A stretch of 64,000 nt of DNA from the NCBI GenBank assembly GCA_963775685.1, contig CAVZJV010000014.1:608001-672000 (forward strand), in the 5' to 3' direction. The position numbers and the translations under genes are program-made. Positions 37,362 to 60,195 of the stretch are shown one piece after another; the first letter of the stretch is position 1, and the number at the start of each line of letters is the position of its first letter. The stretch comes from Candidatus Bathyarchaeota archaeon. GTDB lineage: Archaea; Thermoproteota; Bathyarchaeia; Bathyarchaeales; Bathycorpusculaceae. The notes below the pieces were generated by a model that did not search any database, was not told the DNA's origin, and was given only the letters and a program-made list of their open reading frames with translations.

Positions 37362-37934
37362 CTAATAGTTCTCTGTCCAGACTTCAAAGTAGGCTTTGGA
37401 GTGATCACATGTTGGGCATTTATCTGGCGCTGAGTCACCTTCCATGACTAAGCCGCAGTTTCTGCACTTCCACTTGACTGGTTGATCCTTCTTGAATACT
37501 TTGCCTTGCTGTAAACTTTCAAGCAACTTGTTGTATCGACGTTCATGATAAGCTTCTACTTTTGCAACACTCCGAAAAGTCCAAGCAACATCTTTAAATC
37601 CTTCCTGTTCAGCAACCTCACCGAAGTTGGGGTAGAGTGTTCCCCACTCGAGTTTTTCTCCTTCAGCTGCCGCTTTAAGGTGATCGGCGGTCGAAGCGAT
37701 TACGCCTGCTGGATAGGTTGCTTTGATTTCAACCATTCCGCCTTTCAGATGCTTAAAGAATAACTCGGCATGTTCCTTCTCGTTACCTGCAGTTTCCTCA
37801 AAAATCGCCGCAATTTGCTCATACCCTTCTTTTTTGGCTACGCTGGCGAAGAATGTGTAGCGGTTACGTGCTTGAGATTCGCCAGCAAAGGCGGCTAGAA
37901 GGTTCTTTTCTGTTTGACTTCCAACAAAATTCAT
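37362..37934 (-). CDS. rbr: Rubrerythrin
   Basis: AFAGESQARNRY, EKEHA, EAYHE, C-terminal CRNCG...CPTC. Confidence 0.95.
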   Translation of the reverse strand: MNFVGSQTEKNLLAAFAGESQARNRYTFFASVAKKEGYEQIAAIFEETAGNEKEHAELFFKHLKGGMVEIKATYPAGVIASTADHLKAAAEGEKLEWGTLYPNFGEVAEQEGFKDVAWTFRSVAKVEAYHERRYNKLLESLQQGKVFKKDQPVKWKCRNCGLVMEGDSAPDKCPTCDHSKAYFEVWTENY

Positions 37935-38039
37935 ACTGTTTAACTCCTACCTTTTGATATCTGAAACCAAAATAAAAGTGTTCCCAGTTTTTTCTATATT
38001 AATGTGAACGCTTTTATTTTCCACCACTCATTAGTTGTA

Positions 38040-38107
38040 TGCCGGATGATGAGAAGGCATTAGCTTGACAACTTGTTGGATGACGGATCAGAGTTACTCA
38101 GACGGCA
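38040..38107 (+). ncRNA. C/D-box guide sRNA (dual guide, 23S rRNA H69/H71 region)
   Basis: Terminal stem TGCCG/CGGCA; box C ATGATGA 38046-52; guide GAAGGCATTAGC; D' TTGA; C'-like TGGATGA; guide CGGATCAGAGTTACT; D-like CAGA. Guides are antisense to AATGCCTT and GTAACTCTGA, recalled as neighbouring LSU rRNA sequences. Confidence 0.65.
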
Positions 38108-38160
38108 ACGTCTGGGAAACTTTATGTTGCGAAGAAGTATAAGGTTTCTCAGGCGAAAAG

Positions 38161-39459
38161 ATGAGAAAATACGCTAGAGAGTGGGTTCAAAATTATCCCA
38201 GCATCGCAAAAATCTATGAAGCAATCGCGGGCATCAGGCGAATGGGCTCCGAGGGCACAGTTGAGATTTATGTTAAGGGCGTAAAAGGTTTCGTTGAGTA
38301 TTTAGGCTATTCTGACCCTGAAACAGCGCTCCTAGCAATTAAAGAAGGCAAGATAAACGTCGAAGAGAAAGTAGACAAATTTATCGATTATGCATTAGAA
38401 GAACAAAATAAAGCTCACAATCACGTTCGTAATCATGTTTTTGGCGTCAAAAAATGGTTTGGGTTAAACGGTATCCAAATGGATTGGAAGAAAATTGAGC
38501 TACCAACCACGTCAGAAATCCGAGAAGAGGATCGAGCACCTACAAAAGATGAGCTAAAGAGTCTGCTTAATCATGGAACATCTCGAGACCGTGCGGTTAT
38601 TTTTTGTGATTCAAGCAGTGGTCTTAGGGCAGGTACTCTCTTTAGCTTAAAGAAAGGGGACTTAGACCCTAATTATCCAGATTTGGCACGTTTAACTGTT
38701 CAAAGGAAAAGAGGTAGAAAATTCACTAGTAAGCGACGAGGAACTGCGGGAAGGTTATTCTGCACTTTCATTACGCCCGAAGCAAAGACCGCTCTGCTGC
38801 AATACTTCGAGGAAAGAGAAGCAGCAGGAGAAGTCCTAACTGATGAATCACCTCTCATAGGCGATAATTATCATAAAGGCAAGTTCACAACCATAGAGGA
38901 TTACGAAAAGGTCTGGGCAAGAATCCTAAAGCGAGCAGGATTAGCCAAAAAATCAAACAAATGGTACGAGCTACATATTCATACGCTAAGAAAGTATTTC
39001 CGTTCAAACTGCATCGGAGTTGACGCCAGTTACCGAGAACGCTGGATGGGCCATAAAGGACTCTACCTTGACATGAGTTACTTTAAAGCTGATGAACCAA
39101 AGAATCTGGAAGAATACCGCAAAGTCATTCCGCATTTAACTATTCAGGCAACTCCAATAGAAGAGAAGAAACTACGGTCGAAGATGCTTCTCGACTTCGC
39201 AAGACTCCAAGGGTACGATGACAATCAACTGCAAAAACTAGGCGATGTTTTAGCAAGAGCCAAAGACGTTGATGAAGCCATAACAGAATTTAGACATCTG
39301 AACGAAGACAGCGCACAGACAGACAACAGAGCTCAAAGTAGAAGTGCAACTGGAAAGTACAGCGTCGTGAAGGGAGAAGGGGAACTTGTTAAACATTTAG
39401 ATGACGGCTGGAGTTTAATTCAGAGCCTAAGCGAAGAAAAGTTTCTAATGAAAATGTAG
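38161..39459 (+). CDS. Tyrosine recombinase/integrase
   Basis: Catalytic set SSGLR, HTLRKYF, WMGH, DMSY. Confidence 0.9.
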   Translation: MRKYAREWVQNYPSIAKIYEAIAGIRRMGSEGTVEIYVKGVKGFVEYLGYSDPETALLAIKEGKINVEEKVDKFIDYALEEQNKAHNHVRNHVFGVKKWFGLNGIQMDWKKIELPTTSEIREEDRAPTKDELKSLLNHGTSRDRAVIFCDSSSGLRAGTLFSLKKGDLDPNYPDLARLTVQRKRGRKFTSKRRGTAGRLFCTFITPEAKTALLQYFEEREAAGEVLTDESPLIGDNYHKGKFTTIEDYEKVWARILKRAGLAKKSNKWYELHIHTLRKYFRSNCIGVDASYRERWMGHKGLYLDMSYFKADEPKNLEEYRKVIPHLTIQATPIEEKKLRSKMLLDFARLQGYDDNQLQKLGDVLARAKDVDEAITEFRHLNEDSAQTDNRAQSRSATGKYSVVKGEGELVKHLDDGWSLIQSLSEEKFLMKM

Positions 39460-39802
39460 TTCATTATTTCTAGGAAATGATTGGGGGTCGTAGTCTAGTT
39501 TCGGTCTAGCAAACTGCTGTCGACATCGACAAAAGAATTTTCGTGTTTTGCAATCTCTCCTTTTTTCTAGAGAGATACCGTGGAGCGAACCTCTGACTAA
39601 ACTGCTGTTTTTCAGGATGCCATTATTTACCGTTTTTCTTGACATTATTCCTAATTATAGGAAATACGATTAACAGCATAGATAATATGGATGCTAACCC
39701 TATGTGTACTAGGCGCAGTATTGAAACAGCCAACCTGCGTGCCTTGTTGGAAAACACAAATGCTTTTAACCCTATTTCCCCCATAAAAAACTGGAGAAAA
39801 AA

Positions 39803-40865
39803 ATACGCAAGCCAAAATCAAGAAAATATTAGACGCAAGCGTTCGAGTAATAAGAGATTGCTGCTTGGAAAATGGAGCTATTGTTGCTGCAAATTGCTCC
39901 AAGGATTATTTTCCAAAGGAAGCTAAATATTATACGTATGTTTGGCCTAGAGATGCTTCTTTTACTTGTGTTGCCTCTGATATTCTTGGAATTGAAAATC
40001 AAGAGAGATTTTTTGATTGGTGCATAAGAAGGGCTGAGGGCTTTCAGAATAGTGGATTGTTTTTTGAGAAATATTACACTAATGGATTAAAAGCGCGTTT
40101 TAGATTTCAACCAGATCAAACTGGGTCCGTTCTTTGGGCAGTCTGGCATCATTTCAGAGATGATCTGAAGAAAGCTCTTCGTTACAAGAACTTGGTTGAA
40201 AAGGCTGCTAACGGTATATGTGACAAATGGAAAGGTGATCATTTTGCCGTCATCACAAGTGACTTGTGGGAGGAAAGGTCGACATTCCCTGATTTGAAGG
40301 AAAACTGGACTTATTCCTAGCTGCTTGCATCAAGGGGTTAGAATGTGCTAACGATATAGCGCCTAATGAGAGATGGATTGAAGTTGCTAACTTAATGCGG
40401 AAAAGGCTCGAAAATCATTGTCTATCTTACTATTTTAGGAGTTACGGTGACCTTAGCGATAAGAGAGTTGATGCTTCCCTTTTGGGTTTAGTTTACCCTT
40501 TTGAAATCTTTTCCCCAAATAATCCCAAAATCGTTGCAACCATCAAAGAGCTTGAGACTAAGTTGGTGGTTGATGGTGGCCTTCACCGGTATGAGCAAGA
40601 CGAATACGATGGTTGGATGTATGAAGAGCAGCATAGAATGAAAGGTTCTGGAGCATGGCCTTTACTCAACTTTTGGCTAAGCATTTACAACGCAAAGGCA
40701 GGTAACAAAGAAAAGGCCCTTCAGTACTATAACTGGGTCCTGGATAAAGTTGATAGCTTTATCCCTGAGCAAATATTTGATAACGATATTCAAATTTCAG
40801 TTAGTCCACTTTGCTGGAGTCACTCAATGTTCGTTTTAGCTAGCAAAGAATTGAATTATATTTAA
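39803..40865 (+). pseudogene. GH15 glucoamylase-like glycoside hydrolase, frameshifted (possibly a sequencing error)
   Basis: NGAIVAA, YVWPRDA, QPDQTG, DLWEE, VDASLLGL, GGLHRYEQDEY, PEQI, PLCWSH; frameshift near 40318. Confidence 0.8.
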
Positions 40866-41207
40866 GTTTCTTGGTGTTGGTTATCAAAGACTACTGACAA
40901 TTTTTAGGTTCAAGTTTATGAATTATGTGTTTGAACCAAGCATAGATGTATACTACTCCTAAAACACCAAAACCAAATAGTGACACATAGAATAACCATC
41001 AAGCACTTGGAAAAAAAGAGATTACTTCATTTCTAGTTATTGCCATTAGGACAATTTAAAAAAAATGGAGACTTCATTGAAGCAGATTGCTGGACAGAGT
41101 CTCCGACAAACGTTGTTGCGAATTAACCAAATATAACCAAAATCAATCAAGAGATAACTGAATTTTGGCGTTTTTACGTTCCTTTTTTTAAGAGAAAATA
41201 AGAATTG

Positions 41208-41229
41208 ATTTTGTCGTCAGTGTACACTT
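41208..41229 (+). promoter_or_regulatory. Conserved upstream motif of P2
   Basis: ATTTTGTCGTCAGTGTACACTT, containing the palindrome AGTGTACACT. Confidence 0.6.
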
Positions 41230-41328
41230 GCCAATCTATATTATTAATCAAAAAGCTATAGACGATATTGAGCACTAAGTAAATCAATCGTTTACTTTTT
41301 GCTTAACCAAATTTGGAGAAAAGGAAAA

Positions 41329-43737
41329 ATGCAAAAAAAAGTAGCTACTATTGTATTAATAATACTATTAAGTATAACAGCTATCCCCTTGCTATCAACA
41401 ACTAAGGCTGCGACAACCTACAACTACCAAACCTTTGCTTATCTCTCTATTCGACCAAACCCTATAGGAGTCAACCAAGCTTTACTGATTAACTTTTGGA
41501 TAACACCGCCCATGCCTCAACCCGGCATTCTAGCACATGGTTACACAGTTGAAATCACACGTCCTGACGGAACCAAAGAAACTCTCGGACCATTTACTAG
41601 CATAAAGCAGACACCTCGATGTGGACCGAGTGGATACCAAAGACAGTTGGGACATATCAATTGAAAGTCATTTATCCAGGAGAAACAGTTCCCTCAGGAA
41701 CACCATATCAGAGCACCGTAATGACATCTACATTTTCAAGCAAGACAGTGGACACTTACGTTTTCGCTCCTGCTGAAAGTCCAGTAACAGAACTCATTGT
41801 ACAGGAAGAACCTATTCCTGGCTACCAACCAACTCCACTTCCAACAGAATATTGGGCACGCCCAGTATCAATCGAAAACAAAGAATGGGCCTCACTTATG
41901 GGTAACTGGGTAATGAGCAGTAACAGCCCTAATAGCGCATACTATCAGCCATATGGGGGAGGACCAGAATCGGCACACATTCTTTGGGTTAAAACCACTG
42001 GCAAAGGCGGTATAGTCGGCGACGTTTATGGAGATAGCGTATACAGCGGCGACCCACTAGGAACACGCGTTTACAGTATATGCAACTCGCTATTGCCGGA
42101 ATGGGGTACTACAGCGCACCCGATGGAGTACATTGTGTAAACTTGCGTACTGGAGAAGAGTTATGGGTTCAAAAAGGCATAACTCTGTCCCTTGCAATCG
42201 CTGAAAACTATCTTGTACGCGCTCAAGGTCCACCAGTCGATTCCTACAACGCATACTTGATGCAACTAGGTTCATATCTTTACAAATGGGATGCATACAC
42301 TGGTGAATTAATCGTCAACGTAACCGGCATGTCAGGAACCTACGACCCAACCCCCTACGACGCGGGCGACTGGGGTGTGCAAACATACGTTTACAGCACA
42401 CAGACACTTGGCGGTCAAAGATACCTAATTAAATGGACTCCGCAAGGCAATAGTAATAACTTCACCAGCAGAACCGTATACAATGTCACCTATCCGCTTG
42501 CTGGCATAACTGGAATATCGGGAAATTATGGCTTCTACTATGGCGTAACACCTAACACTGTTAACCCCTCAGGAGCGTTTGATATTAAAACAGGACAGAT
42601 AGTATGGATGAAAAACTACACTATCAACGAAGCACAGTTCTCAAGCGCTGGAACTCTAACTGAAGAGGGAATTTACGTCTATCCGAAATATTATGGTGAC
42701 CCCAATCAGCAGGGATTAAGACCACTGATGGCTATTGACATATCAAACGGGAACATTCTGTACGATTCCACTGTAACTACCTATCCTTGGGGAAGCTTTT
42801 GGAGCTACTCTAAAGCAGCAGCTTACGGTATGGTCTATTACCCAACCTACACAGGACATGTCTGGGCATTTGACGCAGCAACAGGTCAAGTTGTCTGGAA
42901 AGGCGGGTACAATCCAGTGGGCTATGAAACGCCCTATGGCTACCAACCTTTCTTTTCCTCGATTGCAGTTGCGGGCGAAAAAGTCTATGCTGGAAACGAC
43001 GAGCACAGTGAACAATCACCATATTATCAAGGAAAAGGAATGTGGTGTCTCGATGCTTACACGGGAGAAACAATATGGAACATAAGTTTCTGGTCACCGG
43101 GCTTTAACATGCAAGGACTCTTAGCCGACGGATTACTTGTGGCCACCAACTTCTATGACGGTCGCCAGTACGCCTTCGGTAAAGGCAAAGCGCAACTACA
43201 ATTGTAGCATCACCTGAAGTTACTATTCACGGATCTAGCGTACTGATAACGGGTACTGTAAATGATGTTTCCCCAAGCGCTAAAGATGACCGAGCAGTAG
43301 CATTGTATCCAAACGGTGTTCCATGTGTTTCTGAAGAGAGCCAAAGCGCATTCATGGAATATGTCTACATGCAAAAAGCAAAGCCAATGAACACAACCGG
43401 TGTTTCCGTAACATTAAGCGTTCTTGACTCCAATGGCAATTACAGAGACATAGGCACTGTAAACACTAACGCCGACGGGTACTACAGCTCAAACTGGACC
43501 CCTGACATCGATGGAACATACACTGTCTATGCTTCGTTTGCTGGCAGCACTTCCTATTGGCCATCTCATGCAATCGCAGCCTTCGCCGTTGACCCAACAT
43601 CGCAAACCCCAACACCAACAGCAGTTCCAGTTCAATCAATGGTGGATCAGTACTTCTTAACGGCTGTCATAGGCTTAGCGCTCGTAATCATCGCATGCTT
43701 TGCAGTAACGATTCTAATCCTTAGAAAACGACCCTAA
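41329..43737 (+). pseudogene. PQQ-like beta-propeller surface protein P2, about three frameshifts
   Basis: ORFs 41299-41664, 41619-42140, 42080-43207 and 43303-43737 join into one P1-like protein ending LRKRP. Confidence 0.85.
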
Positions 43738-44164
43738 AATCTAACTTCCTCTTTTTCTTTTTTGAAAAAGCTATTAGCTTAATCAAACATAATTGCGATT
43801 GTTGTCTTGTTCTGTGTTGTCTTAAAATAGCTTACTCTCTGAACTACCGGTTGTAATTTTTAATTTTAAGATAAGCGGTTAAAGGTGATTACTTTTGAAA
43901 ACAAGGATTGATATACTCCGAAAAAAGTACATTTTGGTTTCAATTCTTTTTTTCAAATATTTTAGGCTGAACTAATTCAAATTTAGCTATGTTCTTTAAC
44001 GCTCATTGACCGCCATTAATTTTTTATTGATAAAAAACTTACAATAATATTATAAACTAAACCAGTAATAAAATCTAATTGAATTGGGCAAGGGCATAAG
44101 TACGTAATTATTTAATGATTATGTTTTTTGTTCAATTTAAAAACAAAAAAAAGGAAAAGAAAAA

Positions 44165-46651
44165 ATGCTGAATTTAAAAAGTAAAACTATGGCTATTTTG
44201 ATTGCTATAATTCTAATGATAACCACCTTCTCTGTTTCAATTATGGCGGATGTACCTGTTGCAAATGCCCTAACTCATACTGAGTCCGATACAAATGCCT
44301 TCATAACTGTCAGTCCTAACCCCATCGGGGTTGGTCAGACAATGTTCATAATGTACTGGCTAATCCAGGCTAATCCGCTGTCAGCAGATAACTTGGAAAC
44401 TGTCTGGAAGGATTACACCTTGTTAATCACAAAACCCGATGGAACAACTGAAACTATAATAAAGAACGCCAATGCAGCGGCAGGCCAAGCTACAACATAC
44501 GTTCCTGACAAAATCGGCACCTACACTTTCAAATTTACTTTCCCTGGCCAGCAAGTAAATAGCTCAACAATTGATAATTATTATAGAAGCAGTAATGCCA
44601 CAACCACATGTACAGTGCAAGAAGAACCGATCGCTTCACTACCTCAAAACCCGCTTCCAAACGATTATTGGCAGCGCCCGGTAAACTGGGAAAACCAAGC
44701 ATGGAACTCAATCACAGGAAACTGGTTCGGTGACATCCATCTTTGGGAGAATTGGCAAGCACATGGAAAAACTCAAGGCCTCAATCCCGACACCGTGTCT
44801 CCTCAAAGTGCTCACGTACTATGGACGTTACCCATAGCTGACGGAGGACAAATCGGAGGATCAATGTATAGCGACAACGACAAAAGCAACTATTTCGTTG
44901 GCAAATCATACAAAGAGTATTGGACTCCACCGGTTATCATCAACGGAGTAATGTATTACAATAGTCCTCTTGGTATACCACCGCGCACAGGAGTTACCGC
45001 TGTAGACTTACGTACTGGAAAAGAAATATGGCATAACGAAGCAATTCCATCAATTTCATTTGGCACAGTCTACTCCGAGCATAACCCAAACGAAGTAGGA
45101 GGCTGGCCATACCTATGGTCAACAGGCGCGAACTATACAATGTATGATGCAAACACAGGAAGAAAAATTCTTGACGTCACCGGCATGTCAGGCACTCCAA
45201 TCATAGATGCAACAGGACAGTTACTTGTTTACAGATTGCAAGCAATTAACGTAACTCACGGGTTCTTATCTATGTGGAATGCAAGCAGAGGTACAGGAAG
45301 CACCGGAAATTCTCCTTGGGATAGTTGGAGCTATGATACACCTGCAGGAGGCGTCCTTACCTATGCAAAAGGAATTCAATGGAACGTTACAGTACCAATA
45401 TTTCCGCAGACCGGAAAAACAGTTGCTATCTGGGGCATAAATGACGGTGTAGTACTAGTAACTGGAGAGCAAGCAATCCAAGACTATCAAACAGAGGCAG
45501 GCTATAGCGCGTTAACAGGTGAACTTCTATGGAATACAAACCGATCGATAGGAATGCTCCATGAAACTTCCGCCCTTGTACCAGGACCCATTGCAAACGG
45601 AATCTATACAGAACACAACAAAGAAGTTGGCACCTATTGGGCTTTTGATATACATACAGGTAAACAACTTTGGGTAAGTGAACCAGATCCCAATGCTTGG
45701 AACATTTTTACCAGACAGGGAATTGGTGATGGTAACGTCTTTATGATGGCAGGAGTGGCTTCAGGAAGAGCATACAATGCCAGCACAGGTGCACTTGAGT
45801 GGGAGTTTTTTGCTCCACAAGCAGGGTTGGAAGCTGTCACGCCAACTTATCCTTTCGAAGGAATGTATAACTGTTTGGTCGGCGGCGGAATGACCTTCTT
45901 AGCGGTAACTGACAGCCACGGCGATCAGCTATTCAGAGGGGCAAAAATGTACGCTATCAACATGACAACCGGAGCGGAAGAATGGAGCATCGACGGATTC
46001 TACGGTGAAGCGCACGGAGGAGGACACGCAATGGCAGACGGGTACCTCGTAGCACACAACATGTATGACAATCAAGTCTATATCATCGGTAAAGGTCAAT
46101 CAGCGACTACAATCACTGCACCAACGATTGGTTCAACGCTTGGTTCTACCGTACTGTTACAGGGCACAGTTACAGATCAATCGCCAGGTCAAACATGCTT
46201 AGGAATACCCGCTGCAGGTACACCAGCAATCTCTGATGCAAGCATGAGTGAGTGGACTTCTTACCTCTATATGCAGAAGCAAAAACCCACAAACGCAACG
46301 GGGGTTCCAGTATCAATAGATGCAATCGATCCAAATGGCAACTTAATACACCTTGGCGATGTTACAAGCGATGCAAGCGGTCAATATAGTCTCGCATTAA
46401 ATACTAACACGCTTGCTGCAGGTGCAGGTACATACAAAGTTATCGTAAGCTTCGCAGGCTCCAAATCTTATTTCAGTTCATCCGCACAAACCTCTCTCTG
46501 CGTTACAGAAGCAGCGCCAACAACCGCTTCAGCACCTGTTGCAGCAGTATCCATGGCTGACCAATATTTCATCCCTGCAGTTGCGACAATCATCCTTGCA
46601 ATCGCTATAGGTTTCGCAGTAACAATACTAGTCCTTAGGAAGCGACCATAA
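44165..46651 (+). CDS. PQQ-like beta-propeller surface protein P3 (intact)
   Basis: Signal peptide, PNPIGVGQ, PNDYWQRP, propeller repeats, YMQKQKPTNATGVPV, TM anchor LRKRP. Confidence 0.9.
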   Translation: MLNLKSKTMAILIAIILMITTFSVSIMADVPVANALTHTESDTNAFITVSPNPIGVGQTMFIMYWLIQANPLSADNLETVWKDYTLLITKPDGTTETIIKNANAAAGQATTYVPDKIGTYTFKFTFPGQQVNSSTIDNYYRSSNATTTCTVQEEPIASLPQNPLPNDYWQRPVNWENQAWNSITGNWFGDIHLWENWQAHGKTQGLNPDTVSPQSAHVLWTLPIADGGQIGGSMYSDNDKSNYFVGKSYKEYWTPPVIINGVMYYNSPLGIPPRTGVTAVDLRTGKEIWHNEAIPSISFGTVYSEHNPNEVGGWPYLWSTGANYTMYDANTGRKILDVTGMSGTPIIDATGQLLVYRLQAINVTHGFLSMWNASRGTGSTGNSPWDSWSYDTPAGGVLTYAKGIQWNVTVPIFPQTGKTVAIWGINDGVVLVTGEQAIQDYQTEAGYSALTGELLWNTNRSIGMLHETSALVPGPIANGIYTEHNKEVGTYWAFDIHTGKQLWVSEPDPNAWNIFTRQGIGDGNVFMMAGVASGRAYNASTGALEWEFFAPQAGLEAVTPTYPFEGMYNCLVGGGMTFLAVTDSHGDQLFRGAKMYAINMTTGAEEWSIDGFYGEAHGGGHAMADGYLVAHNMYDNQVYIIGKGQSATTITAPTIGSTLGSTVLLQGTVTDQSPGQTCLGIPAAGTPAISDASMSEWTSYLYMQKQKPTNATGVPVSIDAIDPNGNLIHLGDVTSDASGQYSLALNTNTLAAGAGTYKVIVSFAGSKSYFSSSAQTSLCVTEAAPTTASAPVAAVSMADQYFIPAVATIILAIAIGFAVTILVLRKRP

Positions 46652-46820
46652 ATAAAGAAAAACATACAAACAATCATTTCCTCTTTTTTTAGTTCTAGTC
46701 GAATAATAAATCGTTTTACTAAGCGGGCGATAACTAATCTGAGGCGTATGTTTTCCTTTTCATTCTCTTTTTGGCAATAGCTTTTGCTCTACCAAGAATT
46801 CCCCTAATCTCTTCAATTTG

Positions 46821-47112
46821 TTAATCACTTATTTCGCCCAATTCCACCGAATCAGATATAGCTTTCAATTCAAGTCCCGACGGAATCAAGCTTCCTTGCT
46901 TTACGTAAGTTTCAGCAGGCTCAAGCTCTTTGTGCAAGATTCTCTTAATTCTGCCAGAGAAAACCATTTCATCAATAAGCTTCACCATGCCATCTTCAGG
47001 AACGTCCAGTCTTTGCACACCATAGTTGATTAGATCGGTTTTCTTTGTGTTCCCAAAAGTGCACAGATAGGAAATGATTTTCTGCTCCAAACTCGAAAAC
47101 GATTTTTCCATT
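46821..47112 (-). CDS. Small winged-helix-like hypothetical protein
   Basis: MEKSFSSLEQKIISYLCTFGNTKKTDLINYG...LIDEMVFSGRIKR. Confidence 0.5.
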
Positions 47113-47501
47113 TTAGCGCCCATTTTTCGTTTATCTATAAGCAAATTTAAGTCTTCATAACATGAAAATTGATTTCTTCTCTGGTAGCGAGTCAACAAAT
47201 AATATTAAAACTCCTTGGAAGTTTAACGTCACCAATCTTGCTGGTTCACACATAGTTTTCTAGAAACAAATTCACTATCCGCCCTTGATTTTGATTTAGA
47301 AAATTTTTCTCATTTTGCGTGCCACTTCTTTCTCGATTTTCACATTTGACACACTATTCGGCGGAACATACCCCGAGTGGTGATGTCTCCCGCGCAACTC
47401 TTCCCTTTTTTTCTTAAGCATTTATTTTTGCCATAAGAAAGAGGTAGCCTAACTTCCACAAAAAAATTTTGAATTTAGGAAGTTAGTATCGTAGTCCATC
47501 T

Positions 47502-47625
47502 TGGGGGCTCGTTGTCTAATTACGGACACAACTTTTGATGGATATATCACCCGCAAGACCCTATTTGTATGTACGGGTTGCATTTGCTCTTTTCTACTAT
47601 TTCGGTTCTAGAGCCCCAGCAAACC
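47502..47625 (+). repeat. Structured repeat element, copy C (upstream of P4)
   Basis: TGGGGGCTC...GGTTGCATTTGCTCTTTTCT...TAGAGCCCCAGCAAACC. Confidence 0.75.
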
Positions 47626-47667
47626 AACCTGGCACTTTCTATTCAATTCTTAGCATATAAAGAAGTG

Positions 47668-47708
47668 ATTTGTCAGAAGGAGCACTTGTTACAACATTTC
47701 TTAAACAA
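47668..47708 (+). promoter_or_regulatory. Conserved promoter block of P4 (near-identical to that of P5)
   Basis: ATTTGTCAGAAGGAGCACTTGTTACAACATTTCTTAAACAA. Confidence 0.7.
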
Positions 47709-47755
47709 ACCGAGAAGCAATATAGTAATTACTGAATAAAGGAGAAAACAAAAAA

Positions 47756-50384
47756 TTGCTAAATCTAAAAAACAAAAGCTTAGCTATTTTGATTGCAACA
47801 CTCTTAACAATTTCTATGGGAACTTCAATGCTTATATTACCAAATGCTAACGCACATACGCCTCCATATGAAATTCCAACATATGCCTACATCAGTGTTC
47901 AACCTAACCCCAGTTGGAGCAGGTCAGCAAGTATCCCTTAACTTCTGGATTGACAAAGTACCACCCACCGCAAACCAAGCGTGGGGAGATAGATGGGGAA
48001 ATTTCACAGTGAAAGTTACCCATCCTGATGGAACAATAGAAAATCTAGGACCTTTCACAGCTGATGCCGCTGGAGGAGCACACGCATGGTACACGCCCAG
48101 CACCGTAGGCAACTACACATTTATTTTCACTTTTGGAGGGCAAACATTGGCAGGCAACAATCTATGTCCAGGGTTCACTGCTGCTTCATATCCGAACATT
48201 GGCGATCATTATGCATCAAGCACTAGCGTACCTTATGTCTTGAACGTAGGGCAAGAGCCAACACCAATTCTACCTAACAATCCGCTTCCAACAAGCTACT
48301 GGCAACGCCCCATATTCTCAAACAACTTAGCTTGGTACCAGGTCAGCGGAAACTGGCTTGGTGGCGGCACCGGAGGAAATTCGGGATGTCAATACAATTC
48401 TACCTCAAACTATGTTCCATATTCTACAGCGCCAAATACAGCCCACATAGTTTGGACAAGGGAATACGCGCCTGGGAGGGCTCATCGGCGGCGAATTCGG
48501 CGGCAACATGGTTGACAGCATGATGATGTCAACTTCACAGTACGAGTGCAAGTTTGCGGGAGTAGTCATCAAACGGAGTACTTTACCGTACTTTGGAGCC
48601 GGGTAGTTTGAGAAACTATATGGGCTGGGAAGCAATAAACTTGCGAACTGGAGAACAAATATGGTGGCAGAATCAGTCATACACTAAATGGCTAAGGATG
48701 GGTCAAATCTTTGACTATGTGTCACCCAACCAATATGGCGGACTAGCCGACTTGTGGAGCGTTGAGGACACTGTAGCGCCAAACACTGGTCAAACATGGG
48801 GCATGTATGATGCAATGACCGGCGGCTGGATATTATCTATAGTCAATGCCACAAACCCAACCTGGGCATATGGAGAACGCGGTGAGCTACTAGGCTACTA
48901 CATCAATTCAGCCACAAAAACACTGAATATGTGGAACTCAACCAGATGCCTATTATTAGGACAAAATCCAATGCAAGTTGCCGTTTCAACTGAAGACAAC
49001 TGGCAATGGAGACCAAAAGCAGGTGCAGAAATCGACTTCAAAGTCGGAATACAATGGGCAAAACCCTTGGCAACAACCATGGTAGCCGACAACGGAACAA
49101 CAGTAGATATTTAAGATTGATGCCTGAAAAATCCGGAACTACAGCTTACCCTATGGCAATAACCAAAGTCAATAGCGTAGTAATGGTAGGTAACAGCGGA
49201 GCCGGAGGCAGATTCCAGCAACCAAGGTTCATAGTGAATGAAGCCTATGACCCGATAACAGGCGATTTGAAATGGGGTCCGACAACAATAGAATTAGATC
49301 CATGGTCTAGGATGTCAATGAGTTCTTATGGACAGGGCGTCTTCACTATATTTACTTATGAAACTCAGACAATCAGCGCCTACAGCCAAGCGACAGGACA
49401 GAAGCTATGGGGACCCGTACAGCTAACAACGCCTAATAATCCATGGGGATACTACCTTACGCAATCGATTATTGGTTATGACAAACTCTTTGTGACTGAC
49501 TTCGGAGGAAATGTCCATTGTCTCGAACTTGAAACTAGAAAATTTCTATGGAAGACCAACACTAATGATGTTGCACAAAGAGGTCCAGCAGGAGCAAATA
49601 CTCCTTATGGTATATGGACTATCGCCAACATTCTCTGCTTAGCCGACGGAAAACTTTTCACCATGGGCGGCCACCATACAGTCCACCACTTTTCAACGGC
49701 GGCGAATTAATCGCGTGGAACGCAACTACTGGAGAAAAGGTATCGAGTGATTTGCTTTTGCCATCACAAACAGCGCTAACGGTGTACTATCAGACGGCTA
49801 TCTAGTATACCAAACGCTTATGACAACCGACTTTACTGCTACGCCAAAGGTCTATCAGCCACCACCGTCTCAGCACCAGATCAGCTATCCCAGAGCGATC
49901 TTCTGTGTTGATAAAAGGCACAGTAACCGATCAGTCTCCAGGACAAACTTGCCTAGGGAGTACCTGGAAAGGGAACACCAGCAATAGCCGACGAAAGCAT
50001 GACCGAATGGATGGAATACCTCTACCCAACAACCTATGCCAACAAACGCAACTGGAGTACCAGTTAACATCGATGCCATAGATGCCAACGGCAACTACCG
50101 AAACATCGGAACTGCAACAAGCGATACAACCGGAGCATTGAGTTTAGCTGGAAACCAGATATTCCAGGAAATACACAGTGATCGCCACTTTCCCAGGAAC
50201 AGAAGCGTACTATTCATCAGCTCAGGAAACAAGCTTTGTAGTCGACCCAGTGACGCAAACAGTATCACCGCAACCAGTAGCCAAGCACCAACTACTATGT
50301 ACATAATGGGTGCAGCAATTGCAATTATCGTTGCAATCGCCGTTGTTTCGTCATAACAATACTTGTTTTAGGAAGCGACCTTAA
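47756..50384 (+). pseudogene. PQQ-like beta-propeller surface protein P4, multiply frameshifted
   Basis: At least six overlapping ORF fragments with P1/P3 motifs, ending RKRP-stop at 50384. Confidence 0.85.
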
Positions 50385-50450
50385 AAATGTCATACAAAAA
50401 TCTATCTTTCCCCTTTTTTAGTCTTTTAAAAACATTGGAGAACAAGACGA

Positions 50451-50545
50451 GGGCTGAGAAGGCTCTGGAACAATTAACGAAATAGCCATAGTAAAAGAGC
50501 TTTTGCATTTGCTCTTTTCTTAAAAGCCGGAGTCACAGCAACCCC
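50451..50545 (+). repeat. Structured repeat element, copy D (downstream of P4)
   Basis: GGGCTGAGAAGGCTCTGG...AAAAGAGC-TTTTGCATTT-GCTCTTTT...CCGGAGTC-ACAGCAACC. Confidence 0.85.
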
Positions 50546-50927
50546 ATGATTCTTCAGCAAAAATGTTCCTTGAAACCGTTTTTTAAAGCATAAAAGTGTA
50601 CTGGTAGGATTTGAACCCAGGCGAAAGTGGAGATATCACCCGCAAAACCCCTTTTTTCTTTTCTATTTTGTTAGACGTATGCTTTTAAAATTTATTAACG
50701 AGCCATTTCTGCAAATTAATAAATTTTGAGCCAAGTGCGAGCTTTACTCTTTGGGTCCTTCTAAAATATCTGTTAATCGACCGCTTATCATTACCGATGG
50801 GTCAAAATTGAGTGATCGTTAGGTCGGTCTTTGTCAGTTGTACTTTATACAATATTCTGGATCTTAAGAACGATAAAAATCGTTGGAAAACAAACAAACA
50901 CACAAAAAAACCCACGAAGAAAAGATA

Positions 50928-51033
50928 GGGGCTGAATGGGCTCTGGGTTTAGTTCAAGATACCTATCCATAGTTTGTCGTGGAGAACGTTTGCATTTCGC
51001 TCTTCTCCAAAGACTCCAGAGCCTAAGCAAACC
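50928..51033 (+). repeat. Structured repeat element, copy E (upstream of P5)
   Basis: GGGGCTGAATGGGCTCTGG...GGAGAACG-TTTGCATTT-CGCTCTTCTCC...CCAGAGCCTAAGCAAACC. Confidence 0.85.
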
Positions 51034-51076
51034 AACCGATTTTTCTATCCAATTTTTTAGTATATAAGAAATGTTG

Positions 51077-51118
51077 ATTTTGTCAGAAGAAGTACTTGTT
51101 ACAACATTTCTTAAACAA
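51077..51118 (+). promoter_or_regulatory. Conserved promoter block of P5
   Basis: ATTTTGTCAGAAGAAGTACTTGTTACAACATTTCTTAAACAA. Confidence 0.7.
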
Positions 51119-51162
51119 ATCAAATCTAATATAGTAATTACAGATAAAAGGAAAGAACAAAA

Positions 51163-53655
51163 ATGTTGAATCTAAAAAATAAAACTTTGACAATTTCAAT
51201 TGCTTTGCTTTTAGCATTTTCGATGATCGCTTTGCCTATCGCAGCTAACGTACCTACACATCACAAGTCAACCCACGCATATGTAAGCGCTACCCCCAAT
51301 CCAATCGGTGTCGGACAAGAAACCCTCATACACTTAGGCATCACCGACGAATTACAAGATGTTACATACGGCTGGGAAGGATTAACCGTAACAGTTACCC
51401 GACCAGACAATACAACAACAACCCTTGGTCCTTTCAGAACCGACGCTACGGGCGGAACAGGCACAATTTTCGTACCAGACCAAGTAGGCACGTACATCCT
51501 ACAGGTAAACTTCCCACCACAATGGTTCAACTGGACTACCAACGGCGGAGCCGACATCTGGTATGAAGCAAGCACAAGCGAAAAACTTGCATTAGTTGTT
51601 GACCTAACACCTGACAAATTCTACCCCGGACAACCATTACCAACAGAATATTGGACTCGACCAATCGACGATCAACTTAGGGACTGGTATCAAGTCGCTC
51701 GTGCCTGGCTAGGCTTCTTCAGCTGGCCGCACTTGGAGAGTTCGTTGAGAACAATGATACGCACTGAAACATCACACATTCTATGGGCAAAACCACAAAC
51801 AGTTGGCGGTTTAGTTGGGGACCCATACGGCACAGAAGGCTTCGAGAACGGAGACGCATATGAAGGTCTATGGGGCTACGGCTCACCAGTAATAATCGAC
51901 GGAATAATCTACTACAACAACGACAAAGACGGAGGGATTCTGGAATCGAGCACACCGTCTCAGCGATTGACCTACGCACAGGCGCAGAAATCTGGAACAG
52001 AGCACTTATCGGACCAGACAACATATCCCGATCACTTACATTCGGACAAATCTTATCCTTCAACTCATACAACTACCAAGGCGCATTCTCGTATCTCTGG
52101 GCAACAAGCGACAGCACATGGAATGCATTTGACCCCTTCTCAGGACGATTTGAATATGGCATGACTAACGTACCATCAGGCACACAAATACGCGGACCAA
52201 ACGGAGAAATACTCATCTACACAGTAGATACCACACACAACTGGATGACTCTTTGGAACTCAACCAAAGTCGTCAGCGATTCTGGCAGCTTCTTGCGCAA
52301 CGGCATGGCTTCAACCTACAAAGTAGCTTGGTCTGCTGACCGCAACGGAGGATACATGTGGAACGTAACTATACCCAATGACTTGCCCGGCGGAGCAAAC
52401 GTAGCATACTTAGACGACATAGTTGTAGGCTCAGAATTGCAATCCAGAACAGCGACAGCCAACATCTTAGGTCTCACAGGCAGCCCAATGATTCTGGGCA
52501 CTCAACGTTAAAACTGGTCAAGAAGGGCAACTACTCTACCAGAAATCATGGCAACCACCAACAGACAACCTCTCTATAACATTCGAGAAATCAAGTCTGG
52601 TCGACAACGTATTCACCATCTATAGCAAAGAACTACGCTCACACATTGCCTTTAACATGCACACAGGCGAACAAATGTGGGGGCCAACCACGCCAGATAC
52701 TATCTACAGACCTTTGGTCTTCAGAGCAACTTTGCATATGGTAAACTCTACGTAACAGGGTACGGCGGAATCGTTTACTGCTACGACGCAAAATCAGGCA
52801 ACCTTGTATGGAACTATACAGTCGTCGAACCATTTGGCGGCTCAGAAGTTCATGGAGCAACAATTGGCCAACATCAATACAGTTCATAGCAGACGGCAAA
52901 ATCTACTAGCAAACTCAGAGCACTCAGCCAACCAACCATTGCCAAGAGGCGGACCATTTTTAGCGCTCGATGCAGAAAACGGCAGTGTTGTCTTAGAATC
53001 GACGGCGCATTCCGTCAACCACGTTGGGCTGGGCAAGCCGGCATGGCAGATGGCATAATTGCTCTATTCAACACCTACGACAGCAAATCTACGGAGTCGG
53101 TAAGAGTCCAAGCCAAACAACTGTGACTGCATCACCGAAAATTTCAGAGTTCGGAAACAGCGTCTTAATTGAGGGTACAGTTCCCGAACTTCAGCAGGCA
53201 CACAGGATTCTCGTGTAACAGCACGTTTCCCCAACGGTGTAGCAGCAGTATCCGACGACAGCATGAATGACTGGATGCTATATGTCTATATGCAATTTGC
53301 ACGTCCAACAAACACAACTCGTTCCAGTAGAACTTAGCGTTATCGACACAAACGGCAACGAGCGAACAATCGGCACAACAACAAGCGACTCCAGTGGAAC
53401 ATTCAGTTATCAATGGACTCCTGACATCACAGGCAAATATACCGTTACAGCTACTTTCGCAGGCACCAACAGCTACTGGCCATCATATTCAGAAACCACC
53501 TTCGCAGTTGACCCCGCAACGTCAACACCAATCCCACTGAACCAGTTGTACAATCAGCTGATCAATACTTTATTCCTGCAGTCGCAGGCATAATCGTTGC
53601 AATCGCAATAGTTGGGGCTTTAATCGTACTCTTGATGCTTAGAAAGCGAGCATAA
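51163..53655 (+). pseudogene. PQQ-like beta-propeller surface protein P5, multiply frameshifted
   Basis: Fragments with PNPIGVGQ, PTEYWTRP, HILWAKP, WTPDITG; ends RKRA-stop at 53655. Confidence 0.85.
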
Positions 53656-53717
53656 AAAGAATATGCAACCAAAAAACAACCCATCCTTTTTTAGTCAAAA
53701 AGCAATGAAAGAAAACT

Positions 53718-53813
53718 GGGCTGAGAAGGCTCTGATCAAACTAACAGTGGCCTACTCACTGTAAACGCATTTGCATTTGCGTTTCTCTCCTTGCCCCAGA
53801 GCCTCAGCAAACC
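53718..53813 (+). repeat. Structured repeat element, copy F (downstream of P5; cleanest copy)
   Basis: GGGCTGAGAAGGCTCTG..ACAGTG-GCCTACT-CACTGT-AAACGCA-TTTGCATT-TGCGTTT..CAGAGCCTCAGCAAACC. Confidence 0.88.
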
Positions 53814-53899
53814 AGTTTTCTATTCATTATTGGCACCTTGAATATTGAGTATAAATCCTAATAAATCTCGAGCTACAGAAAGTTATTCAGGAAGTTGTT

Positions 53900-54808
53900 T
53901 TGCCTGATTTTCTTGTTGGCACGGGCGGTTGGGCTTACTTCAAAGTTCCAAACAAGCCATTTCTAAAAGCATACAGCGAACTATTCAATTTTGTAGAAGT
54001 CAACTACACTTTCTACGAGTACCCAAATGCTCATTTGGTTGAGAGATGGCGAAAAACAGTGCCTGAAAGCTTCACTTTTTCAGTTCGGTGCCACCAAGAC
54101 TTAACTCACAACAATGGGTTTTGTGCCGACGAGTCAGGCTTACGAAATATTTTATCAAATGCGAAGCTACTGTGACATCCTATGCGCGCCATATTTGGTT
54201 TTGGAAACACCCGCAAAATACGTGATAGACCAAGAGAACGCAAAGGATGCACGGGATTTTTTTCTTCCTTGAATTTTAATGGGCTAAGGCTTGTATGGGA
54301 ATACCGGGCACCTATTACTCAAAAAATCATGGACCTCATGGAGGACTTTGGCATAATTCAATGCGTTGACCTGTCGAGGCAATACCCAAGTTATGATCCA
54401 GATGTTGCGTATTCAAGGTTGTTTGGGAAGGGCAACAACATTTACCAGTTTACCGACGATGAATTGGCGGAAATTGACCAAAAAGCCCAAGAAACCAATT
54501 CTAAAACAGTAATATTGTCTTATCGCGCAAGGATGAATACTGACGCTGCTCGTTTTCTGCACTACAAGGGTACTGGCAAGTTTCTTCCAGTCACGGCTTA
54601 CACCGGTGTTGATTCTGCAAGAGCAGTCCTATCAGAAGACGCCACTTTTCCATCTACAAAAGCTGAGTTGAAAGCGGAACAGGACTGGAAAGTCATCGAC
54701 ATAACCCCGGAGAAAAGAGCGCATCTTGCTGAGGTTCTTGAAAAAATACCTGACAAAAAATATTCAAACCTAGAAGATGTCATAACAGAGTTGAGGGCGG
54801 TCTTTTGA
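53900..54808 (+). pseudogene. DUF72-family protein with a C-terminal DUF2795-like extension, frameshifted
   Basis: VGTGGW, FVEVNYTFY, FTFSVRCHQDLTH, YSRLFG; C-terminal FPSTKAEL...KYSNLEDV. Confidence 0.75.
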
Positions 54809-55627
54809 CTGAAGAGAACATCTTTCTTGGTACCTGGGGGTGGAGCTACAAGGAATGGGAGGCAACTTCTACCAAAAGAAAAATATTGAAAGCAAGCTTC
54901 GAGCTTACTCTAGGGTTTTCAAGACCGCTGAAATAGATTCAACCTTCTATCGCAACCCATCCAAGGGAACGGTCATGGGTTGGCTGAAGTATTCTCCGAG
55001 CGACTTTATTTTTTCTGCTAAACTGCCAAAAACCATAACTCATGACAAAGTGCTTGGGTTGAAAAAAGATGTTAAAGCTGATTTAGAAGTATTTTTGGAT
55101 TTGATGCGTCCCCTGCAGCTTGGAGGAAAACTCGCTTGTTTGCTTATTCAGCTGCCTCCAAAATACTCATACAACCCAAAGAACCTTGAAGCGTTCTTCC
55201 AAATACTCGACCCAACATTTAGGTATGCCGTAGAGTTCCGAAACATGACATGGCTACTCCCAGCAACTGAAACCTTCGCACTCCTGAAGCAGTACGGAGT
55301 TGCTTACACGATTGTGGATGAGCCGCTTCTGCCTCCGGAAATGCATCTGACGGCTGATTTTGCATATTTCAGATGGCATGGCAAAGGAAAAGACATCTGG
55401 TTTGATTACCGATACAGCGAAAGGAGCAGCCCTGGGTTCCAAAGGTCCAGGAAACAGCCAAAAACGTCAAAAAAGTCTATGGATACTTCAACAACCACTA
55501 TCAGGGTTACGCTCCAGAGAATTGCCTATGCTTACTTGAAAAGCTTGGACTGTTATCTGATACTCAAAAAAAGGTTAAAGAAAAGTCAAAGATTAAGCAG
55601 TCGCAACTGGGTGCCTACTTTGGTTAA
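54805..55627 (+). pseudogene. Second DUF72-family protein, frameshifted
   Basis: LGTWGWSYKEW, AEIDSTFY, AKLPKTITH, QLPP, AVEFR, YFRWHG, YFNNH. Confidence 0.8.
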
Positions 55628-55759
55628 GACTTAACTGCACAGCTTAATCAAAACCAACTGCGTAAGTGAAAACACTTTAACCCAACTCTCCAGTATACTT
55701 GCAAGCAGTTTCAACGTCACAGTTTTTAAAGTCACTCAGCAAATAATTGTTCGAGCTCT

Positions 55760-55930
55760 ATGGTAGATTTGTCTAGGCCTTGCGATGCTTGCGGGAAAAT
55801 GGTTGGCGGCGGAGTCTATTCATGCCCTAAATGCCAGATTTACTTCTGCTTCTACTGCGCATGCCAACTTCCAAACACTAACAATACAATAAAGAAAGAA
55901 TGCCCAATGTGCGGTGGAAAATTCGAGTAG
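55760..55930 (+). CDS. 56-aa Cys-rich zinc-finger protein (four CxxC)
   Basis: MVDLSRPCDACGKMVGGGVYSCPKCQIYFCFYCACQ...ECPMCGGKFE. Confidence 0.7.
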   Translation: MVDLSRPCDACGKMVGGGVYSCPKCQIYFCFYCACQLPNTNNTIKKECPMCGGKFE

Positions 55931-56041
55931 TGGATATACCTTCATAGCCAAACTGAATATTTACTAAAAATTGCCCGTCTACATCCTAATTAGCAACCCT
56001 CAGATCATACGAGGAAACATGGAAAACTGGAAAATAACTCG

Positions 56042-56129
56042 TTATGGACATGCAAGCAAAGGAAAAGGGAATACAAGAATAAACTCTGAAATAAAAAACA
56101 GTCTTAGCAGAAACCGCATAACCGTTTCC
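56042..56129 (-). repeat. Dispersed ~85-bp repeat, copy 1, encoding a 25-aa hydrophobic peptide
   Basis: ORF 56119-56042 MRFLLRLFFISEFILVFPFPLLACP; DNA similar to 57918-58001 and 58533-58622. Confidence 0.65.
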
Positions 56130-56248
56130 TTACAATTTGTTAAGCCTTGGATCAAAATTTAGTCTCCCACACACCATTTCAACGTCAGCTATCATCTTTA
56201 GAACAAAGGGATGCAAACGGAACGTGCTTTGTTTGACGAGAATACATG

Positions 56249-56332
56249 TGAATGTTGTTTCATCCTGTAACAACTTAATGTTATAAACTGAATGTTGTTT
56301 CATCCTGTAACAACTTAATGTTATAAACTGAA
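56249..56332. repeat. Perfect 40-bp tandem duplication
   Basis: TGAATGTTGTTTCATCCTGTAACAACTTAATGTTATAAAC x2, then TGAA. Confidence 0.95.
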
Positions 56333-56361
56333 ACGCTCAAATGATAAATAAGGTAAAATAA

Positions 56362-56602
56362 ATGGAACAAGCCCAAGCATACAAATTGGATTTGACTAAA
56401 ATAGAAGGAAACGGAGACTTCTCATGTCCAAGATGCAGAAGTACCATTTCACCGGATGAGACTACAGAAAAGACCTACTGCATTATAGAACCAAAAGTCA
56501 ATAAAAATGGGCTTGGAAGAACTGGTGATTAGCTGCAACATATGTAAAAGTCATATTCACTTGACTGGATTTTCTCTCTTGGATGAATTGTCTATTAAGT
56601 AA
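56362..56602 (+). pseudogene. Small zinc-ribbon protein, one frameshift
   Basis: MEQAQAYKLDLTKIEGNGDFSCPRC...NGL / EELVISCNICKSHIHLTGF. Confidence 0.65.
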
Positions 56603-56876
56603 AGTAACTCTCGAAAAACACTGATTTGCTTTTTGATTTTGTTCCAACCTTCCTAAGCAAATTTTAAGCCATTATAACTATTCTTACGGAACAAACCAAC
56701 CTTACTACAACAGCAACCCAGCACGGCCCTCAAGCACCAACTCCATCAGCAATGAAAGCGAGAATGACCTAACTCGGTCCCCTAAGGTGAATATTAGGTA
56801 GTTGACGAATCAAACTTTTGGTTATCTTTCTACACATGAAGACTGCAGCCTAAAAGAAGGGGGTTTTGCAGAAAAG

Positions 56877-57281
56877 TCAAAGCGGCAATTTTTTCTTGGT
56901 CACTCTGGATGCACGGTAAAGTTCAAGTATTTCCCATGTTGCATTGGAAACTTTCAAGTTTGAGCCATTGAAGTAGTCTATGTATTTGATTTCGCTACTT
57001 GGCTTAGCAACTCCGGAGGTTTCTATTAAGAAAACTTCATGGTTGTCGGTTAATGATTCATATTCAAAAAGAAACCTACAAACAACTGTTTCAAGAATAG
57101 TTTCTTCTTTAAGTTCTCTAATTGCTGCGTCTTTACGACTTTCACCTTTTTCTGCTCCGCCTCCAGGCAAATAAAAAGTACGATTATCATGGCTAACAAC
57201 AAGTATCCCCCTTAAAGCATCAACAATCGCGGTTCCTCGTCTCCTTTTAGAAGCCAGCATATTGCATACTTGGCACACCAA
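56877..57281 (-). CDS. NUDIX hydrolase; an upstream Cys/His zinc-finger segment is cut off by an in-frame TAG at 57285-57287
   Basis: Nudix box LPGGGAEKGESRKDAAIRELKEET. Confidence 0.85.
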   Translation of the reverse strand: MVCQVCNMLASKRRRGTAIVDALRGILVVSHDNRTFYLPGGGAEKGESRKDAAIRELKEETILETVVCRFLFEYESLTDNHEVFLIETSGVAKPSSEIKYIDYFNGSNLKVSNATWEILELYRASRVTKKKLPL

Positions 57282-57712
57282 TTTCTAATAAGCAATACGC
57301 TCTACAAAATCTTGGATTTCTGCTCTATGCGTAGAGCAAACTACGCGTCCACATATGCAGACTTTAGGAGCAACCTTGATTTTTGAATATTTTCTTGTTT
57401 AAATTATTTGGGAAACTAAGATCAGGCTGAGGGTTAACCATTTTTTTAGAAAGTAAATAATGAATAATGAATGCAATATACAATAAATAGTAAATATTTT
57501 ATCAGGATAAATGACATATGCAAAATTACAAATAATTAGACAAACAATACATACATAATTTCTCTCTTTCACATTTTTCCTTTCTTTTCTCTTTTTTTTA
57601 GTAAAGTTTCATTTTTACGCTCCAAAAATAGTTCTTAGGGATTGAATCCTGCCTAAGTAGGAACCGAATAACCGTCTCGATGCAGTAAACGCGCCTATAA
57701 TCATGTATTATT

Positions 57713-57847
57713 TCAGCTTGTTAGTGCCGTTACAATTTCGCCTTCTACTTCATTTCTTAGATAAAGAAAACCAAAACCGAAAATGAAAACCATACTCAAC
57801 GTAAACAAAAAACCGCAAACTATAATGTAGATAATCAGCCACGGCAT
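57713..57847 (-). CDS. 44-aa single-TM peptide
   Basis: MPWLIIYIIVCGFLFTLSMVFIFGFGFLYLRNEVEGEIVTALTS after GAGGG. Confidence 0.45.
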   Translation of the reverse strand: MPWLIIYIIVCGFLFTLSMVFIFGFGFLYLRNEVEGEIVTALTS

Positions 57848-60177: not shown

Positions 60178-60195
60178 AACTCTTAACTGGTTACT

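Follow-up and report, generated by a model that had tools for sequence, protein, structure and literature searches.

A box C/D sRNA gene with two predicted 23S rRNA targets is the probable attachment site of a clade of tyrosine integrases in Bathyarchaeia

Crenarchaeal C/D sRNAs directed at helices 68-71, which are called hotspots in the available parts of Dennis et al. 2015 (PMC4644070), include Sac-sR113 and Iho sR91, which target A2179, and Sac-sR125 and Iho sR109, which target A2204 (the Sac-sR113 target is printed as 'A21779' in the table of that paper and was taken as A2179). In yeast, A2256 (snR63) and A2280/2281 (snR13) are methylated, according to sections of PMC2794176 and PMC5199042. 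Among mobile elements, the closest described ones encode class II (pNOB8/lambda-type) integrases, for which sections of Badel et al. 2021 (PMC8371274) and Krupovic et al. 2019 (PMC6563490) describe a whole integrase gene adjoining the att site, a restored 3' end of the target and a short att repeat. The targets of these integrases and of tRNA-targeting islands are given there as tRNA genes, protein genes and intergenic regions, and neither snoRNAs nor sRNAs are mentioned among the targets in the available text of the two articles. Noncoding RNAs account for 13.5% of the provirus RNA targets in PMC13626063 and are not named in portions of its main text. The available parts of PMC4644070 report no crenarchaeal sRNA as an integration site, and our literature search, which covered mostly titles and abstracts outside subscription journals, returned no paper with a C/D sRNA as attB.

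Here, we describe a locus in a 64,000-nt window (the whole stretch of DNA that was analysed) of a Candidatus Bathyarchaeota archaeon genome which, judging from comparative sequence analysis, would be both a dual-guide C/D sRNA gene and the attB of a clade of Bathyarchaeia integrases, a reading to which we assign a probability of about 0.8. As in the class II systems, a whole tyrosine recombinase gene, unsplit by att, adjoins the site, the 3' end of the target is restored and the att repeat is short; the difference lies in the target, which here is a C/D sRNA gene.

The 68-bp sRNA gene lies at positions 38040..38107 of the forward strand, and all its parts were found where the original prediction of a dual-guide C/D sRNA had placed them. 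A 5-bp terminal stem, confirmed by a sequence check (TGCCG at 38040-44 and CGGCA at 38103-07), encloses box C (ATGATGA, 38046..38052), the pairing part of the D' guide (38054..38061), box D' (TTGA, 38065..38068), box C' (TGGATGA, 38077..38083), the pairing part of the D guide (38088..38098) and a variant box D (CAGA, 38099..38102). The arrangement is that of archaeal C/D RNAs, with a box C of the form RUGAUGA near the 5' end and internal C' and D' boxes. Across 30 homologous loci, box C reads ATGATGA in 26, ATGACGA in 3 and ATGAAGA in 1, box D' is TTGA in 26 and TAGA in 4, and the GATGA of box C' is found in all 30. Box D departs from the canonical CUGA in 28 of the 30 loci (CAGA in 21, CGGA in 7, CTGA in 2), always keeping the form CNGA and thus the GA; according to the available parts of PMC4644070, Sac-sR125, which is expressed in Sulfolobus, likewise has CAGA as its box D. 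One relative (L204) carries near-canonical versions of all four boxes. The terminal stem is identical in 63 of 78 distinct copies and can still pair in most of the remaining ones, including one case of a compensated change on both sides (TGCCA/TGGCA). A TATA-like box (38012..38017), which would belong to the sRNA promoter, is kept at a fixed distance in homologous loci, with TTTTAT or TCTTAT ending 22-25 nt before the stem (GCCG/GCCA) in 29 of 30; a sigma-70 promoter scan, using a model ill-suited to archaea, gave no match. The divergent upstream neighbour is a rubrerythrin gene (37362..37934, reverse strand; Pfam PF02915), as in most loci of the same genus, and fibrillarin, Nop5 and L7Ae are all encoded in this genome. 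Generic screens were less telling: a search of the sRNA against Rfam returned no family at gathering score and only chance matches by E-value, the folding energy of the 68-mer is unremarkable (z -0.77), and the single match of a genome-wide C/D regular expression yields no statistic, since the expression was tuned to this sRNA.

Both target sites are contained in the only 23S rRNA gene of the genome (C14:2234059-2237091). The D guide forms 11 contiguous Watson-Crick pairs with 23S positions 2030-2040, and the D' guide 8 pairs with positions 2058-2065. By the +5 rule, T38094 of the D guide is opposite A2034 and T38060 of the D' guide opposite A2059, so the two targets lie 25 nt apart in the organism's own 23S rRNA, much as the prediction had put it. 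Their counterparts in an alignment with one E. coli 23S record are positions 1911 and 1936; the helix-69 T residues of that record are at 1909, 1913 and 1915, with the helix-69 pseudouridines being named as 1911, 1915 and 1917 in sections of PMC2794176; the record thus runs two short at helix 69, and the targets correspond to A1913 and A1938. The same guide cores and the same two 23S positions appear in the pairs Sac-sR113/Iho sR91 and Sac-sR125/Iho sR109 (whose A2178 is E. coli A1912), going by the available parts of PMC4644070. In Sulfolobus and Ignicoccus, however, the two targets are served by separate sRNAs, whereas here one sRNA carries both guides, with that for A1938 placed at D' and shorter; in yeast, too, the equivalent positions belong to separate snoRNAs, snR63 and snR13.

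The two targets differ in strength. A1913 has good support as a target: the 11-bp duplex exceeds the bar of about 9 pairs set beforehand and passes the plain rule of at least 9 Watson-Crick pairs over +5, and shuffled guides produced an 11-bp duplex over +5 anywhere in 23S and 16S rRNA in 8 of 3,000 trials. A1938 appears plausible as a target but weaker than A1913: its +5 position is paired, but the 8-bp duplex falls short of both the earlier bar and the plain rule, +5 is second from the duplex end, and most homologues have a mismatch at -3. The proposed extension of this guide by '(CT)' had to be given up because the rRNA there reads CCAAATGCCTT and leaves it unpaired. An 8-bp D' duplex arises anywhere in 489 of 3,000 shuffles, which is not significant alone, within approximately 100 nt of the real D target in 242 of 20,000, and both duplexes fall within 100 nt of each other in 2 of 3,000. 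Under the relaxed dual-guide rule described in parts of PMC6009581, the D' guide passes with a combined score, computed here, of 38 versus the 32 needed. With regard to eukaryotes, the equation of E. coli 1913 with yeast Am2256 follows from the sections of PMC2794176, while that of 1938 with Am2281 is by offset only, Am2280 and Am2281 both being methylated in yeast. The claim that these are sites shared with eukaryotes holds as far as the equivalent yeast positions go, but they are not special in this respect, since Sulfolobus and Ignicoccus sRNAs are predicted to target both. With crenarchaeal precedents for both methylation targets, the sRNA alone is ordinary, its particular trait being the presence of both guides on one molecule. 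As a separate observation, the order of the two guides is also that of their counterparts on the antisense strand of the 23S gene (C14:2236089-2236123, reverse strand, versus 38054-38097 in the window; 17 versus 26 nt apart), as if the sRNA had arisen from an inverted rRNA piece. The genome has two 16S genes (C14:2431328-2432822 and C13:15805-17300), both unlinked to the single 23S gene.

Conservation in relatives was confirmed by BLAST with the whole sRNA, which at E ≤ 3.1e-5 matched 45 of 61 genomes (its own included), within the genus and in further families of the order. In all 30 homologous loci found by BLAST, the two guide cores are unchanged, with variation in the D'-C' spacer and at the guide edges; this invariance was counted on the BLAST-found loci, given that it is built into copies selected by pattern. 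The D-guide/box-D pattern matched 140 of 401 class genomes, mostly within the order, with few matches for the reversed control, and homologues outside the order were found in G321 and G066. The locus sets come from separate searches and overlap, and kin are not independent. A phylum-wide tally of the guide pattern (208/401) was discarded as void, since the 23S gene itself, read on its antisense strand, fits the pattern; all non-rRNA hits among the matches listed belong to the same class. In viral contigs, the sRNA pattern gave one match (L040), located inside a phage coding gene and attributable to chance.

Directly behind the sRNA, starting 53 nt 3' of its end, an open frame of 432 aa (38161..39459, forward strand) encodes a tyrosine integrase (phrog_1, E 1.8e-14; PF00589, E 2.4e-5, just under the cut-off; PDB 4A8E, E 4.9e-10). 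R156, H274, R277, H298 and Y307, which we take to be the catalytic residues of a tyrosine recombinase, are invariant in an alignment of eight integrases. The match to 4A8E, a 'XerC-like' recombinase and the only one obtained in PDB by sequence, covers fewer than 100 residues; the likeness to XerA/dif extends to arms around a 6-bp spacer, but unlike that system the element here is mobile and patchy, and its att repeats bound cargo. Three further, distant tyrosine recombinase matches (25-27% identity) lie at C14:568489-570806 and 1365618-1366367.

Searches with the same eight-sequence alignment, in which seven of the eight seeds are sRNA-adjacent and may thus favour that class, found 113 integrase loci, 8 of them distant (23-30% identity, other phyla) and 105 in-group. 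Among the latter, 63 have the sRNA 45-219 nt upstream and 14 have too little upstream DNA; the remaining loci show an rpl12-type site (11), the core only (5), an inverted core (1), another C/D-like RNA (1) or something else (10). Merged by protein (92), the corresponding numbers are 55, 13, 7, 5, 1, 1 and 10, so that, of the 79 distinct related integrases whose upstream DNA could be read, 55 are directly behind this sRNA and 18 beside neither sRNA nor core (7 rpl12-type, 1 other C/D-like RNA and 10 others, 3 of which are gene fragments). In a quick IQ-TREE run, for which 7 sequences under 250 aa were omitted and identical proteins merged, the in-group forms one clade (88 rows, SH-aLRT 98) and the rpl12-type group a subclade nested inside it (7 rows, SH-aLRT 99). 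From this nesting, the sRNA is likely the older target, with the root unsure and the outgroup branches long. The site of the nested subclade (L089:9612-9940; L087, L090, L092, L096, L124, L130, L131, L140, L145 and L179) is TATTCGGGTAA, at the end of an rpl12-like gene, presumably that of the ribosomal stalk protein, and it is reversed relative to the integrase in 8 of the 11 loci. Other arrangements were seen as well: a long-branch member of the clade directly follows another C/D-like RNA, which has two CTGA boxes (L170:1229-1290) and whose guides find no target over 7 bp in the rRNA of the present genome; an inverted core lies ahead of an integrase at L178:100-130; and two tandem partial cores occupy the far end of an element at L191:9001-9090. 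Integrase searches of viral contigs returned a single fragment (L192).

The last 21 bp of the sRNA gene (38087..38107, forward strand) recur on the same strand with one mismatch at C14:678236-678256, 32.1 kb downstream and 6.2 kb beyond the end of the window. This second copy is the sole other match in the genome at up to 2 mismatches, and the chance expectation of a match with up to 1 mismatch is 8e-5. The sRNA-borne copy would be attL and the distant one attR, the direct repeats bounding the 32.1-kb element and restoring the target gene. The element body behind the integrase (39460..64000 of the window, on to C14:678256) holds GH15 pieces, PQQ beta-propellers, DUF72, NUDIX and a RelA/SpoT-domain gene, many of its cargo ORFs being in pieces, which may reflect decay or assembly error. 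The replication genes of sister elements were not found inside it, and virion genes were absent among the ORFs scanned with Pfam or PHROGs, a scan outside which many small or broken ORFs fall. A small gene (~120 aa, HExxE motif) occurs once in this genome, near the right end of the element, and homologues of it were found in 18 other loci, almost all of which have the integrase or the core; in the Atlas it led to Bathyarchaeia clusters without names and weak peptidase leads only. The attR copy is interrupted by a 2,063-bp insert whose ends are purine-rich (L031:12174-14236; C14:676173-678235) and to which nothing similar was found in the rest of the genome or among the fetched loci; given this insert and the mismatch, the element here is probably ageing. 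Four DNA contig sets, in which the region is represented by scraps only, showed neither a joint nor a loose end at the att site, a result without bearing on excision. The radical SAM gene that flanks the site in relatives (see below) is not behind attR in this genome but 361 kb away (C14:1039701), so the right junction is without synteny confirmation here. Several PQQ beta-propeller surface protein genes are carried by elements of the closest integrase subclade (window 41299-53593; L035, L037, L060), and these elements may spread a large family of such proteins.

In relatives, a whole sRNA and a partial copy occur on the same contig and strand, at a distance of 1.2 to 56 kb, in 14 records; behind the sRNA, an integrase or a remnant of one is found in 8 of these (G000, G002, G012, G381, G275, G230, L123, L167) and no integrase in the other 6 (G004, G031, G028, G057, G366, G423). 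The radical SAM gene lies 3' of the whole sRNA in 9 genomes (at 95-111 nt in 7) and 3' of the partial copy in 10 records (at 102-116 nt in 4). Empty sites with joined flanks are thus found for the family, but not for the right flank of the present genome. In the fetched stretches of G321, G364, G406 and G410:C9, no attR was detected. Replication-type genes of sister elements comprise a primase-helicase (L166) and ParB-like genes (L144, L148). The cargo at this sRNA is diverse: a 56-kb element (G275:C15:19716-76167; L045-L047) with tail sheath, baseplate J, GPD and spike-domain genes resembles a contractile injection locus, and one of 16.7 kb (G230:C5:548508-565231; L042) has an integrase remnant followed by genes for gas vesicles, Hsp70 and a CDC48-type ATPase. 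L034 (G028:C15:2800-6920) has two whole sRNA copies 4 kb apart with a partial copy between them, the second whole copy having a changed box C and TTGA as box D. Two integrase-less elements of 6.2 and 1.2 kb (L032 and L033, in G004 and G031) show extra arm dyads just behind the sRNA and are possible satellites moved in trans.

Comparison of filled and empty sites also clarifies the GCAA hairpin (arms 38097-104 and 38109-116) that the original prediction had seen as an RNA structure competing with box D. The hairpin is present where it was placed, but was misread: its downstream part belongs to an integrase arm acting at the DNA level and brought by the element (P', 38110..38120, pairing with 38093-38103), which is absent at empty sites. 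At integrase-adjacent sites, this 11-bp arm behind the sRNA has the consensus GGATGARWAAC, and its match to inverted GTTACTCAGAC averages 6.3/11 (n=44) versus 2.1/11 at sites without integrase (n=13), 'empty' being defined by us as loci with no integrase match or arm in about 1.5 kb. Box C' resembles the consensus and may itself act as an arm, and immediately ahead of the integrase start codon there is another arm-like site (38144..38154, forward strand), which might permit autoregulation. Two more arms, often around GTTAAC, stand ahead of the core at attR, so that attP would have four arms in alternating direction. Such a set is seen whole in L144, L148 and L186, which combine both element arms with the integrase, as expected of attP or of tandem copies; as these three are without terminal repeats, tandem copies fit too. 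The empty gene has only the two middle arms (box C' with the next bases, and the guide end with box D), flanking TCAGAG (38088-38093), and it is at TCAGAG that attL/attR identity begins. We infer that the core is probably a 10-6-10 arrangement around TCAGAG (putative left arm 38078-38087, right arm 38094-38103), with strand exchange falling within the D guide, between boxes C' and D. In L144, the core reads TAA-TCAGAG-TTA, which we take to resemble the inner ends of dif sites. A crossover at TCAGAG implies that box D at attL is supplied by the element. Among pairs of sites whose integrases are close but whose hosts differ, box D and its preceding base agree in 18 of 41, as compared with 2 of 8 pairs in which the host half is the same but the integrases are distant and a background of 354/1485; the direction is that expected of an element-borne box D, but the test is weak and the pairs are not independent. 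The same bases differ between attL and attR in G230, G397 and G057.

Several other readings have to be weighed against this one. On the RNA side, the D' guide could merely tether or chaperone the H70/71 region, leaving A1913 alone methylated. The short duplex with +5 next to its end, the variable and mostly unpaired positions -1 to -3, the farther pairing of the crenarchaeal guides for the A1938 site (Sac-sR125, Iho sR109) and the existence of conserved guides that do not methylate, reported in parts of Lui et al. 2018 (PMC6009581), all fit this, and yet +5 is Watson-Crick in 30/30 loci, its spacing to box D' is constant and the relaxed rule is satisfied, so we regard it as possible but doubtful. 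It is highly improbable, on the other hand, that there is no RNA gene and that a C/D RNA is mimicked by a recombination site or by an inverted fossil fragment of the rRNA gene. Such mimicry would agree with the antisense-like guide order, the non-canonical box D and the lack of an Rfam match, but not with the retention of the whole unit, 5' half included, in element-free genomes, nor with the fixed TATA-like box or a D guide in common with Sac-sR113 and Iho sR91, both with RNA-seq reads.

On the integration side, the same att site might be used with strand exchange at a 6-bp spacer GGCAAC (38104-38109), the centre of an 11-6-11 dyad, in which case the element would supply the 3' stem only, and the guide and box D would stay as they are. 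No other dyad at attL is as perfect as this one, whose geometry is the dif-like 11-6-11 described in sections of PMC8371274; however, sites without integrase have no right arm (2.1/11), making attB a half site, the last two bases of GGCAAC differ between attL and attR in most pairs, and attL/attR identity extends 16 bp upstream, ending at TCAGAG. We thus find it unlikely. That the sRNA is an ordinary one, with the integrase and the distant repeat being incidental, could draw only on the unsupported right junction in this genome and is largely refuted by the chance expectation of the repeat (8e-5), the 55/79 integrases behind the sRNA and the empty and filled sites in relatives; we consider it scarcely credible.

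Under the favoured reading, in which the gene has two jobs, L7Ae, Nop5 and fibrillarin would assemble on the sRNA, if expressed, and the sRNP would methylate the ribose of A1913 in the helix 69 loop via the D guide and probably that of A1938 via the D' guide. At the same time, the 3' half of the gene would serve as attB for intact-type tyrosine integrases of one Bathyarchaeia clade. The final 20 bp (D guide, box D and 3' stem) would also be present on the element, so that integration would rebuild the sRNA at attL and place the integrase gene right behind it, leaving the displaced host 20 bp at attR. In the host, box C' would be the left arm and the guide end with box D the right arm, and attP would add one extra arm on each side, the downstream one making the hairpin, which in a read-through RNA folds back on the guide and box D with a computed -17.8 kcal/mol. 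More tentatively, and with odds that we place below even, the integrase may read box C' and box D as its core arms and cut inside the D guide, each incoming element rewriting box D. If true, this would account for the occurrence of CAGA, CGGA, TTGA and ATGA as box D, and methylation of A1913 could be tuned or abolished by it; since boxes C' and D are common to all C/D sRNAs, such genes would also offer a ready supply of landing sites, a possibility at which the switch in L170 hints.

What is new, then, as far as these comparisons indicate, is a C/D sRNA in the role of attachment site for a dedicated integrase clade, a role usually played by tRNA genes. An rRNA methylation guide would hereby join tRNA genes, protein genes and intergenic regions among the archaeal attachment sites. 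Elements of this kind escape island-finding programs that start from tRNA genes, and some of the att sites published as 'intergenic' may in fact be sRNA genes that were never annotated. With its 20 bp and its presence across the order, the site is a candidate tool for genetic integration. For the Bathyarchaeia themselves, an abundant uncultured class, it would constitute a hotspot for cargo that includes surface beta-propellers, gas vesicle genes, a tail-like injection locus and restriction genes.
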